From assembly GCF_024223415.1 (NCBI RefSeq), contig NZ_CP100500.1: a stretch of DNA of 64,000 nucleotides, one strand, 5' to 3'. Source of the DNA: Escherichia coli. GTDB taxonomy: Bacteria > Pseudomonadota > Gammaproteobacteria > Enterobacterales > Enterobacteriaceae. A model generated the notes under the pieces. The model saw only the letters and a list, made by a program, of their open reading frames with translations. It had not been told where the DNA came from and ran no database searches. Both the position numbers and the translations under genes were made by a program. This document shows positions 4,300-50,493 of the stretch, piece by piece; the stretch's first letter is position 1; every line of letters begins with the position of its first letter.

Positions 4300-4393
4300 G
4301 AAGTTATGTGATTGTTGCTTCTGAAAGTGATATTTTATGTTGTTAAAATGTAAAGTAATAATACAATGAGCTATCCATGATGGGGTTCTGTAA

Positions 4394-4747
4394 ATAAACA
4401 AAACACTCTCTTCAATTCTGCTCACCTTCGGTATTTGTGTATCATCACTGGCTACTGATAAAAACAGAACCGTCAGTTTTCCACGATGTGAAGGGCAGGA
4501 ATCATCGGCTGTTGCAGCCAGCGTCAAACGGGACTATCTCCAGAAACAGGTGCTTCACTGGAAAGATGACTAGGTGATCTTCAGTCAGCAGCATCCTGTT
4601 GTCTGGGTGAATCTTCGTGAGCTGGTAAGTAAAAGTGATAATTTAGTCACAGTGCATCTCACCGCCCGGGGGAAGAAAGCCGATATTCAGTATCGGGTGC
4701 GCATTGACTGTAAGAACGAAAACGCTATCTGGCAGCGCCAGAGATGA
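4394..4747 (+). pseudogene. inactivated copy of a small secreted protein gene (paralog of 53079..53433)
   Basis: Aligns with the 53k copy, but ATG is ATA at 4394-4396 and an in-frame TAG sits at 4571-4573; encodes ...RTVSFPRCEGQESSAVAASVKRDYLQKQVLHWKDD*. Confidence 0.6.
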
Positions 4748-47057: not shown

Positions 47058-47125
47058 TGTTCCGCACTGCGCGGATATCCTGAAACATGTTCTGTTAATG
47101 TTACCTGGTTCAGAAGAGATAAACA

Positions 47126-48115
47126 GTGAGCAGCAGGAAAGAGAAAAATACGCCCACGCCGCATGATGCCGCCTTCAGGGCGTTTATGGCCTCAGCAGAG
47201 GTGGCCCGTGATTTTGTTGAACTGCATCTTCCGGCGGAATACCGGCAGTTGTGTGATCTGTCGACGCTGCGGCTGGAGCCCTGTACCTTTGTGGACCAGG
47301 ATCTGAAACAGTATGCGTGCGATGCGCTGTTCAGCATGAAGACCGTCAGCGGTGAGGAGGGGTATATTTATTGCCTCGCGGAACACCAGAGTACGGAAAA
47401 CGCGTTTATGGCGTTCAGGATGCTCAGATATGCGGTGGCGGCGATGCAGCGTCACTTTGAACAGCACCATGAGCTGCCGCTGGTGATCCCGCTGTTATTC
47501 TACCACGGTGAGCGGAGCCCGTACCCGTACAGCATGAACTGGCTGGAGTGTTTCAGAAATCCGGAACTTGCTGCTAAAATCTACACCAGACCGTTCCACC
47601 TGGTGGACGTGACGGTACTGGATGACGATGAGATAATGCAACACCGCCGAATGGGGGCACTGACGCTGCTGATGAAACACAGCCGCAGCCGCGACATCAT
47701 GCTGCAGATGGACAGGCTGGTTCAGCTGATACAGACTTCACTGAATGAAGAGCTGGCGAAGGCTCTGTTCCACTATCTGCTGAACGGCAGTGAACATGTG
47801 ACGGTAAGGTTTTTGCAGACGCTGGCGGAGCGGCTGCCACAGCATGAGGGCAACATAATGACACTGGCTGAACAACTGAAGCAGGAAGGGGAAGTCAAGG
47901 GATTTGAGCGCGGTATTGCCCAGGGTATGGAGCGCGGTAAGCTAGAAGGCAGAATGGAAGGCAGAATGGAAGGCCGTGCCGAAGGGCGACTCGAAGGACA
48001 ACTGGAAGGCAAACTGGAAACGGCGCGTAATATGTTGGCTGAAGGAATGGGGCTTCAGACCATCATGAAAATCACGGGATTGAGTGAAGAACAGCTGAAA
48101 AAAATCAGCCACTGA
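47126..48115 (+). CDS. Rpn-family recombination-promoting nuclease (YhgA-like, PD-(D/E)XK)
   Basis: 329 aa; N-terminal ...HDAAFRAFMASAEVARDFVELHLP... and C-terminal EGRMEGRMEGRAEGRLEGQLEGKLE repeats typical of Rpn/YhgA-like proteins. Confidence 0.8.
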   Translation: MSSRKEKNTPTPHDAAFRAFMASAEVARDFVELHLPAEYRQLCDLSTLRLEPCTFVDQDLKQYACDALFSMKTVSGEEGYIYCLAEHQSTENAFMAFRMLRYAVAAMQRHFEQHHELPLVIPLLFYHGERSPYPYSMNWLECFRNPELAAKIYTRPFHLVDVTVLDDDEIMQHRRMGALTLLMKHSRSRDIMLQMDRLVQLIQTSLNEELAKALFHYLLNGSEHVTVRFLQTLAERLPQHEGNIMTLAEQLKQEGEVKGFERGIAQGMERGKLEGRMEGRMEGRAEGRLEGQLEGKLETARNMLAEGMGLQTIMKITGLSEEQLKKISH

Positions 48116-48588
48116 AGCATTGAGGCGTGATGTATAGCACGCCTCGTTCTGTCTGACAGTATTTTGTTTCCTGTGTATTTGGTCGTTTCAGGTCAACCTT
48201 TGTCGGGAGCCTGGCGTTGGTACCTGCTGAGGAAAGAGGGAACTGGACGCAGAGTGACAGTCTGCGAATTGCAGGAAGAGGATGCGAAAGTGTTCGCTTC
48301 TTCCATTGTGTCCCTGATTTAAATTCGGATACTCAAATCTGAAGCGGTGACTCGTATACGTGTGAGTCACCGGGACTACCGCTTGAGTGATGAAAAATAG
48401 TCGTGTTAACGCAAAGCTGAAGTGACACATCTTATTTCAGCGAATGCGTTTGACCGCCTTACTATACACTTTTGAGCATTCTCTTTTCCTGACGGAAACC
48501 ACGAAGACGACAATCTTCTCGTCTATAACCTGATATACAAGGCAAAAAACCGTCAAGAGCAGGAGCAGGCGGTCCGCCAGACAGTCCA

Positions 48589-48909
48589 TTGCATAAGGCT
48601 ATCAGCTATATCCTGAAACGACCTGATGAGCTGTGCCGTTTTCTGGATGATGGCTCTGTGCCACCGGACAACAATATCTGCGAACGAGCCATCCGCCCGG
48701 TCACGCTGGGGCGAAAGGCATGGTTATTCGCAGGCTCGCTGATGGCCGGCAAACGCGCGGCACAGATAATGAGTCTTCTGGAAACAGCAAAGCGTAATGG
48801 TCTGGAGCCACATGCCTGGCTGACGGACGTACTGACGCGCCTGCCGGAGTGGCCTGAGGACCGACTGGCTGAGCTGCTGCCTCTTGAGGGATTTACCTTC
48901 TCCGGGTGA
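48589..48909 (+). pseudogene. IS66-family transposase C-terminal fragment
   Basis: ...NNICERAIRPVTLGRKAWLFAGSLMAGKRAAQIMSLLETAKRNGLEPHAWLTDVL... matches the conserved IS66 transposase C-terminus; no N-terminal part or accessory genes. Confidence 0.6.
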
Positions 48910-49004
48910 CACAACACCTGCCGTCAGGTCTTTGCACACCGGGCCATGGCCTGCTGTCGGGCGTTGAGCGCCTGACAGCGGGTTATTGAGAAAGTCAGTC
49001 ACCA

Positions 49005-49150
49005 TGCGCCTGGCTGACAGTCAGGACCTGCACGTCAGCGCCTCCCTTACCCTGGTCAGGACTTCACTGCCTGCCACAAACTCCCGTGTCAGTACTTCGC
49101 GGCCTGACGCGCTCACCCTACTCAGTCCTTCAGAGCCCGCCTCCGGTACC
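49005..49150. repeat. four to five degenerate ~34-bp tandem repeats at the sitB truncation point
   Basis: Units beginning gtcaggacctgcacgtcagcgcc..., gtcaggacttcactgcctgcc..., tcagtacttcgcggcctgacg..., tcagtccttcagagcccgcc...; they produce the repetitive tail of ORF 49021..49392. Confidence 0.5.
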
Positions 49151-49257
49151 TGGCAAGGCAGACGCCGGGGCGCAATAAAATAAATCAACCATCGCAGGGC
49201 GGCGATCATTCGCAACAACCGCTGATGACGAGCCCAGAAACGTGTCAAGACGATTTC

Positions 49258-49392
49258 ACCGGAACCGTTTACCCCAAGCAGAGCGGCAATAGATCCGCCT
49301 GGTACTGTGAAGGATGCATCGCGCAGTGCTTTCTGCCCGTTTCGCCAGGTGACAGTAACGCCATTAACGACAATACCCGCAGATTGCATCAT
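49258..49392 (-). pseudogene. sitB: sitB 5' fragment (metal ABC transporter ATPase), truncated
   Basis: MMQSAGIVVNGVTVTWRNGQKALRDASFTVPGGSIAALLGVNGSG then homology is lost inside the Walker A motif. Confidence 0.6.
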
Positions 49393-50306
49393 TACTTCTC
49401 CCTTTTCCCGGCTTTAATTCCCTGCACCAGCGTACTGGTAGTAACCTTCAGAAGGTCGATATACGTAGGTACCGGGCCGTTTTCTGTGCTCAGGGAATCG
49501 ACATAGAGCACACCGCCGTAGTGTGCGCCGGTTTCACGCGCAACCTGACGCGCTGGTTTATCGGAAACCGTACTCTCACTAAATACCGCTGGGATATTAT
49601 TTTTCTTCACTATATCAACCACTTTACGTACCTGCTGGGGGGTTCCTTGTTGATCGGCATTTATCGGCCACAGATAAAGCTCTTTTAGCCCCAAATCGCG
49701 TGCGAGATAAGAAAAAGCCCCTTCACTGGTGACCATCCATCTTTTATTCTCAGGGAGTTCAGCAATCTGCTTACGCAGGGGGGCAAGGGTTTGGGTAATC
49801 TTGGCTTTATAAGTATCGGCATTACGTTGGTATGTTTTTGCATTTGCCGGATCGTATTTTATCAACGCATCACGAATATTATCGACGTAAATCAAAGCAT
49901 TATCTGGCGACATCCAGGCATGAGGGTTAGGTTTTCCCTCGTAGGGGCCTTCGGTGATCCCTACTGGCGTCACACCCGAAGAGACAATCACTTCTGGAAC
50001 ACCACTGAGATGCTGGTAAAAGCGCTGGAACCACAATTCCAGATTCATACCGTTGGCGAGAATCAGTTGTGCCCCCTGCGCACGTTTAATATCGCCAGGG
50101 GTAGGCTGATACTCATGAATTTCTGCACCGGGCCTGGTTATGGATGAGACTTCTGCAGCATCTCCAGCCACGTTTTTGGCCATATCTGCGATGATGGTAA
50201 ATGTTGTAATGACCTTGAATTTTTCAGTTGCACTCGCCTGAAATGCTATCGAGCAGGTGAGGGCGAGGCACCCCAGGAGCATGGTTACTTTTTTTATTGA
50301 GTGCAT
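49392..50306 (-). CDS. sitA: SitA, Mn/Fe ABC transporter periplasmic substrate-binding protein
   Basis: 304 aa with signal peptide; ...EKFKVITTFTIIADMAKNVAGDAAEVSSITRPGAEIHEYQPTPGDIKRAQGAQLILANGMNLE... closely matches recalled SitA. Confidence 0.85.
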   Translation of the reverse strand: MHSIKKVTMLLGCLALTCSIAFQASATEKFKVITTFTIIADMAKNVAGDAAEVSSITRPGAEIHEYQPTPGDIKRAQGAQLILANGMNLELWFQRFYQHLSGVPEVIVSSGVTPVGITEGPYEGKPNPHAWMSPDNALIYVDNIRDALIKYDPANAKTYQRNADTYKAKITQTLAPLRKQIAELPENKRWMVTSEGAFSYLARDLGLKELYLWPINADQQGTPQQVRKVVDIVKKNNIPAVFSESTVSDKPARQVARETGAHYGGVLYVDSLSTENGPVPTYIDLLKVTTSTLVQGIKAGKREK

Positions 50307-50493
50307 AATTCAGTACCTATAGTGAGTAAAATTAGAACAAACATAGCAACGGCTATGTTTTATAGCATAAGCTATACACAATGCAAATGATTATCATTAG
50401 TAATTCAGACCCCAACACAGGCATTAGGTTGTTTCCTGCTGGCGATGTGGTATTGAGGAAAAGCGTAGGACAGATATCAGGCTTTGAAAGTAA

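Follow-up and report, generated by a model that had tools for sequence, protein, structure and literature searches.

An ISSfl4-like IS66-family remnant with conserved 33-bp subterminal repeats adjoins a sitB pseudogene in Escherichia coli

Genes and features at the locus

The window analysed here is a stretch of 64,000 nucleotides from Escherichia coli (contig NZ_CP100500.1). It contains the remains of a sit operon next to IS66-family sequences (Table 1). The gene sitA is intact, as stated in the initial annotation. Its product (304 aa) is identical to SitA from strain D3 at 297 of 305 positions and covers positions 1-262 of the 263 positions of the ZnuA domain (E=4.6e-86). The same annotation had placed the end of sitB in the Walker A motif, which also holds: the gene ends after GVNGSG, and for the intact sit loci L009 and L158 the match to the window begins no earlier than 49251 and runs to the right, for L009 as far as 50489. 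The genes sitC and sitD are missing from the window, which leaves sitA as the only intact member of the operon. Judging from this gene content, transport has probably been lost at this sit locus. The start of sitB runs on into IS sequence, forming a chimeric minus-strand ORF of 123 aa (49021-49392), in which no Pfam domain was detected. Both pseudogenes have already been annotated by PGAP: sitB' is labelled as a partial ATP-binding protein, and the transposase remnant, in identical genomes, as "IS66 family transposase, missing N-terminus".

Table 1. Features of the sitB'-sitA locus and of the adjoining IS66-family sequences (window coordinates)
Feature	Position	Strand	Basis
C-terminus of IS66-family TnpC, 111 codons and stop	48574-48909	+	Pfam PF03050 and PF13817; PGAP
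Non-coding 3' tail of the IS relic, 356 bp, from TnpC stop to truncated IRR	48910-49265	+	collinear with the 361-bp tails of L003 and L004
Inverted repeat right after the tnpC stop, arms CCTGCCGTCAGG and CCTGACAGCGGG	48916-48983	+	repeat search
Four tandem units of ~33 bp: 49020-49054 (weak), 49055-49087, 49088-49120, 49121-49153	49020-49153	+	consensus ~GTCAGTACTTCnnnnCCTGnCnnnnnTACCCGn
Inner part of the right terminal inverted repeat (IRR), last 5 bp (ATGAC) absent	49236-49265	+	comparison with relatives, AR_0085 and L134
Junction microhomology CCGGAAC, common to the IS end and the sitB Walker A codons	49259-49265		three-way alignment
sitB' pseudogene, codons 1-45 (MMQSAGIVVNG...GVNGSG)	49258-49392	-	translation versus the 276-aa SitB of strain D3
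Intact sitA, periplasmic Mn/Fe-binding protein, 304 aa	49392-50306	-	PF01297 (ZnuA)
Second, unrelated IS66-family relic: complete right tip (GTAAGTG...) and 57 C-terminal TnpC codons	50490-50698	-	PF13817, E=3.6e-15

Upstream of sitA, 183 bp are retained. Homology to the intact sit locus of strain D3 halts at 50489, and the next bases (GTAAGTGTTAAG) are the right tip of a second IS66-family relic. As this tip is complete and begins exactly where sit homology stops, the sitB'-sitA segment lies between two IS66-family right ends in facing orientation. The junction between the sitA upstream region and this second relic was found in 17 E. coli genomes, in eight of them at 98.8% rather than 100% identity. 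The single one of these eight that was checked, strain AR_0085, retains an intact sitABCD operon.

An ISSfl4-like remnant of the IS66 family

Sequence comparison indicates that 48574-49265 is one continuous 3' piece of an ISSfl4-like element of the IS66 family. When 48560-49420 was compared by megablast with 5,426 complete E. coli genomes, query positions 1-705 were aligned as a single block at 78-79% identity. This block spans the transposase fragment, the repeats and the remaining sequence up to 49265, and the subjects are annotated as carrying tnpA, tnpB and tnpC. Full-length IS66-family elements on pRK1 of E. coli W (L003) and on the F-type plasmid pZ1323CEC0009-2 (L004) match the block 48560-49265 without a break. 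The initial annotation had recognized an IS66 transposase fragment, which is borne out by the domain matches of 48574-48909 (PF03050, E=6e-20, profile positions 225-283 of 284; PF13817, E=8e-18). A plus-strand ORF of 106 aa from the ORF listing, which resembles the C-terminus of IS66 transposases, ends at 48909. The repeats, however, had been taken merely to adjoin this fragment, whereas homology is unbroken from tnpC to 49265, which makes them part of the IS66 element.

The TnpC fragment is about 87% identical, at the amino acid level, to the TnpC proteins of the ISSfl4-like clade. It is 5'-truncated: nothing remains in the window copy upstream of TnpC residue ~417, and DNA homology to L003 begins near 48555. 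The neighbour on this side is a RelE/StbE toxin fragment (~48437-48544). A gene for an Rpn-family recombination-promoting nuclease (329 aa, 47126-48115) lies, with this toxin fragment, to the left of the IS relic, and the RelE'/IS junction is also present in AR_0085.

Because only the last 111 codons of tnpC remain, compared with all three genes in L003 and L004, the window copy is a relic and not an intact IS66 member. It has neither a left end (IRL) nor a target duplication, and its IRR lacks the last 5 bp. Another relic copy of the same lineage occurs on a metagenome contig (L134). A search for full-length copies of this lineage returned none from plasmids, E. coli genomes and metagenomes.

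The region to the right of 48909 is GC-rich and has no obvious gene. It aligns end to end (48910-49265) with the 361-bp tails of L003 and L004 (78-79% identity), in which tnpC stops 361 bp short of the right end. The window tail has what characterizes tails of the ISSfl4-like clade: a length of ~360 bp, an inverted repeat after the stop codon, 33-bp units and an AT-rich block, all of them collinear. Each of the two full-length relatives carries tnpA, tnpB and tnpC, and the Pfam domains zf-IS66 and LZ_Tnp_IS66 were found in addition. Their bounds are well defined, with a length of 2,773 bp, matching inverted repeats and 8-bp target duplications (GTTTTCTG and TCATCAGC). The IRL is GTAATGTTCCGGGGAACTCATCTTCACAG, and the IRR ends with ...CCGGAATATTAC.

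Right ends of relatives read ...CCGGAATATTAC, ...CCGGAAGCTTAC or ...CGGAACGATAC; beyond each of them, the flank is unrelated, and target duplications of 8 bp are present. In metagenome copies, at least six different flanks follow ...GCTTAC, which fixes the right end independently. A pattern scan of metagenome contigs yielded further lineages, one of them with the end ...CCCCGGAAGCTTAC followed by at least six different flanks; this confirms the position of the element's end, and the lineage is evidently active. The same relic as in the window ends with ...CACCGGAACATGAC in AR_0085 and in L134. The true tip of the window lineage was deduced from these two copies, together with the homologous ends of relatives.

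The initial annotation implied that the repeats might be the end of an element distinct from the IS66 fragment (Tn7-like or IS21-like). A separate mobile element of this type, or a MITE, that cut sitB on its own would be in keeping with tandem, subterminal repeats close to a gene truncation. As had been noted, the repeats match none of the IS ends elsewhere in the window, and no second copy of the repeat region was found there. However, in each of the relatives that were inspected, tnpC, the repeats and the right inverted repeat are arranged collinearly, and all genuine homologues from the DNA searches, which covered public plasmids, E. coli genomes and metagenomes, sit in an IS66 tail. Nor is sitB cut at the array, as had been proposed: ~105 bp of further IS sequence (49154-49258) lie between the last unit and the junction at 49259-49265. 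We consider a separate element scarcely credible; the repeats are subterminal sequence of a characterised IS family.

Comparison with known elements

ISSfl4 is a 2,615-bp IS of the IS66 family from pINV/pCP301 of Shigella flexneri (PMC5629016). On Shigella pCP301, a tail homologous to that in the window directly follows a gene annotated as "ISSfl4 ORF3". The ISSfl4 TnpC is ~87% identical (amino acids) over the fragment that survives in the window, and its tail has the inverted repeat after the stop codon and the 33-bp units (75% identity over 235 bp). The last ~100 bp of ISSfl4 proper and its tip are unrelated to the window element (L005, L157), which indicates that tails in the ISSfl4-like clade are mosaic. 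A further difference is that the window lineage is known from relics alone. The unnamed 2,773-bp elements L003 and L004 have a collinear tail and inverted repeats of the form GTAAT...TTCCGG. Unlike the window copy, they are complete and probably active, and their tip is GTAAT, compared with GTCAT in the window lineage.

ISEc8 (2,442 bp) shares the family, the three-gene plan and an inverted repeat that starts with GTAAGCG. It has, however, only 37 bp from the tnpC stop to the IS end and no repeat-bearing tail, and its TnpC is only ~33% identical. The long tail would thus be a feature of the ISSfl4-like clade, with ISEc8 as the sole short-tailed comparator since the detection of inverted repeats was unreliable for ISCro1 and ISKpn24. 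TnpC identities of at least 80% were restricted to Escherichia and Shigella; values drop below 40% for the next relatives (ISCro1, ISEc8 and ISKpn24). When 100,044 species genomes were scanned with TnpC for more distant relatives with long tails, a single close match emerged, on a contaminated MAG contig, and the others were at most 37% identical. The ISSfl4-like clade thus looks confined to Escherichia and Shigella.

The 33-bp repeats and the tail

The initial annotation described four to five degenerate repeats of ~34 bp. Their existence and degeneracy are supported, but the period is 33 bp, and there are three clear units and a weak one. The last three units are 55-67% identical in pairwise comparison, while the first has 35 bp and is weak. 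TRF reported no array at a minimum score of 30, and a repeat-pair search returned only short two-copy families over the region. In an autocorrelation analysis of 49005-49150, the region picked in the initial annotation itself, matches peak at lag 33 (45%, z=4.2), with a second peak at lag 66; the lag-33 value was reached, as a maximum over all lags, by 0-0.7% of dinucleotide-preserving shuffles. In the relatives (L003-L007), the signal at lag 33 is 52-54% matches with z values of 6.4-7.0, and no shuffle was as high. The alignments thus point to the 33-bp repeats as an ancestral and conserved feature of the tail across the ISSfl4-like clade. The block 49089-49141 is 87-93% identical to L003, compared with 65% at third codon positions of tnpC, so this periodic block is more conserved than the synonymous sites of its own transposase gene.

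The pentamer GTCAG/CTGAC, which was picked post hoc as the commonest one, occurs 5-10 times per tail in every lineage, with an expectation of 0.7-1.0; it has zero occurrences in the 89-bp left end. Subterminal transposase-binding repeats that resemble the terminal binding site are present in transposons of the Tn7, Mu and Tn402 types. As in these, several spaced repeats are found inside one end of the element, so that the two ends are asymmetric. The similarity does not extend to the repeats themselves. By eye, the units looked like copies of the terminal inverted repeat (GTCAnTA...TTCGC...ATTAC), an idea that was rejected upon shuffle-controlled local alignment (P 0.08-0.99). They show no significant similarity to either IRL or IRR (P>=0.08), contrary to the simplest model of transposase binding, and no binding protein is known here.

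It might be argued that the units are coding, each with 11 codons of a peptide repeat, or that they belong to a small protein of the IS tail. The unit length is divisible by three, several frames are open across the units, and the minus frame over the whole tail has the lowest pN/pS (0.40-0.79). In addition, relatives have a 48-aa minus-strand ORF in the tail (annotated by PGAP) that is intact in three lineages. However, pN/pS is 0.4-1.8 in nearly all six-frame comparisons and none of the frames looks coding, 1-nt indels distinguish the window lineage from that of L003, and in the L140/L008 lineage a unit is interrupted by 7 inserted bp. In L127, an evidently active lineage, the 48-aa ORF is stopped at codon 4; the window copy of this ORF is disrupted, and the best-conserved units are not covered by it. 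A coding function is therefore highly improbable. In L003, the 48-aa ORF is at 4365-4508 on the minus strand, with equivalents in the L140 and L157 lineages, and its sequence, MMKYSPGNGSGLIQVL...PAWWLAWLISC..., includes a hydrophobic stretch.

A structured non-coding RNA, acting as a cis-regulatory 3' UTR of tnpC or as an antisense regulator, is unlikely as well. The plus strand folds better than shuffled sequences (z=-2.97, equalled by 0 of 100 shuffles); there is a long hairpin after the stop codon, and the conserved core contains a second stem, of 8 bp. RNAalifold, run on 6 and then on 16 sequences, detected almost no covariation: the covariation term amounts to only -1.16 kcal/mol, and compensatory changes affect 4 of 45 pairs among the 16 sequences. 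The best stems are invariant and hence uninformative. Specifically, the outer stem of the inverted repeat after the stop codon (columns 13-23 with 68-78 of alignment A3) never varies among 16 sequences from six lineages, so that covariation speaks neither for an RNA structure nor against it. No Rfam 15 family reached its gathering threshold (best hit at 25.7 bits versus 34.9, E=0.36), and a promoter/terminator scan found neither a sigma-70-like promoter nor a plus-strand terminator.

Considering sequence features only, the repeats and the recurring GTCAG/CTGAC pentamer are most likely, in active copies, putative protein-binding sites that are specific for the right end. We tentatively propose a more detailed model, in which the ISSfl4-like tail might be a right-end-specific cis-acting array that consists of a palindrome after the stop codon and three to four phased 33-bp units, all with GTCAG. 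This array, putatively bound by an accessory protein of the IS (TnpA or TnpB) or by a host protein, might control the choice of ends or the frequency of transposition. We found no account of IS66 subterminal repeats in the literature. If the model is true, this array would be a subterminal control region of a kind not described before in the IS66 family. The mechanism of IS66 transposition is poorly understood, so that the 33-bp block is a defined target for experiments. In the window, the array would be an inert fossil in any case.

Several tails on metagenome contigs contain nested IS66-family elements (L109, L119, L136, L129 and L153; L145 and L106). One ISSfl4-like copy seems to be inserted in the tail of another at CTCAGTTC, with which the fourth 33-bp unit begins, and an ISEc8-like end sits inside the second 33-bp unit of a tail. 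Such nesting could reflect either chance or a preference for the tail as a target.

The junction between sitB and the IS remnant

The junction was resolved by a three-way alignment of the IS end from AR_0085, the window, and sitB from AR_0085. At the junction, the IS reads CGATTTCACCGGAAC and sitB reads CGATTT-TCCGGAAC. Homology to sit starts at 49251 and homology to the IS ends at 49265, and the crossover lies somewhere within the 7 bp CCGGAAC; six further bases (CGATTT), one base away, are also common to both. The sitB gene of AR_0085 has ...CGATTTTCCGGAACCGTTTACC where the window has ...CGATTTCACCGGAACCGTTTACC. By our own arithmetic, at least seven identical bases at a random junction have a probability of ~4^-7. 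In AR_0085 and L134, which share the left truncation of the window copy, the relic ends with ...CGATTTCACCGGAACATGAC; the adjoining sequence is unrelated and encodes the C-terminal part of an ABC ATPase. As all relatives have six bases after CCGGAA, ATGAC is the genuine tip, and it is missing in the window.

A live IS66-family element might be thought to have transposed into sitB and to have lost its left part later. Elements of this family do insert into genes (as seen in traI/traX and DUF4238 contexts), and the Walker A sequence of sitB (GTAAACGGTTCCGG) is loosely similar to an IS66-type terminal repeat. Transposition would, however, leave a complete tip, while here the last 5 bp of the IS are gone and the join falls within shared bases, which argues for a short-homology join. 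No target duplication could be identified. AR_0085 has the identical left truncation with another right flank, which indicates that the element was truncated before the sitB junction formed; having lost its left end and genes, it was unable to transpose. We therefore regard transposition into sitB as quite unlikely.

The 3' remnant of an ISSfl4-like IS66 element has very probably been joined to sitB by microhomology recombination. In the proposed series of events, the IS remnant would already have been dead when it met sitB, being devoid of the left end, tnpA, tnpB and a complete tnpC. Illegitimate recombination at CCGGAAC, with CGATTT nearby, would have joined its right end to the Walker A codons of sitB. 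This join would have cost the IS its last 5 bp and the sit operon the rest of sitB together with sitC and sitD, the outcome being an orphan sitA and the 123-aa chimeric ORF.

Illegitimate recombination mediated by microhomology is a known source of pseudogenes. The present case is similar in that the junction lies in a 7-bp identity with flanking near-identity and that both partners have lost sequence. It differs in that one partner is an IS terminal repeat, which mimics an insertion at first sight. What looks like an IS insertion may thus have arisen by joining to a dead IS end at a microhomology, a possibility to bear in mind when IS-flanked pseudogenes are annotated.

The junction is rare, being present in ~9-10 of the 5,426 complete E. 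coli genomes, mostly from chickens. The proposed events would explain why these mostly poultry-associated E. coli have an orphan sitA and lack a functional transporter at this position. The locus is a case of ordinary genome decay and not a new element. Only two points are mildly new: the existence of a diverged ISSfl4-like lineage of which nothing but relics is known, and the conservation of a 33-bp periodic block in the tails of this clade. Among the genomes with the sitB junction are five, including strains 135, TUM9803 and GPEC1040, in which homology to the IS relic starts only at ~48768, pointing to a further truncation or an insertion in a sublineage.

Both partners in strain AR_0085

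Both partners of the junction are found unrearranged in AR_0085, which identifies the junction in the window as derived. The AR_0085 relic keeps the tip ATGAC and has the left truncation of the window copy, with continuous homology over 47123-49265 (97.7%). The tails are 99.4% identical, and the AR_0085 flank differs after 49265. The intact sitABCD operon of AR_0085 has the right-hand neighbours that are seen in the window (the IS66 relic, DoxX, dolP, yebF and an outer membrane protein gene).

The two partner sites in AR_0085 (L093 and L158, at 2,796,681 and 2,975,874 of the record) are 179 kb apart in direct orientation. The genes valS, lptF and lptG are located between them. In E. coli K-12, valS and lptFG are essential. 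With essential genes between the sites, the window cannot be a simple deletion of the exact AR_0085 arrangement. Shared blocks are also ordered differently in the island of the window and in AR_0085. A single 179-kb deletion from an AR_0085-like chromosome was thus rejected for that arrangement, on account of the essential genes and the different island order. The island of the window is mosaic, and when 25 kb of it were used as a query, coverage by any single complete genome of the collection stayed at or below 53%. A block at 12012-20349 of the window, which comprises a full copy of ISEc8 (12012-14453) and an IS3/PhoX block, is 99.7% identical to part of the AR_0085 island. It is found there in another order, and ISEc8 has the opposite orientation relative to the IS relic.
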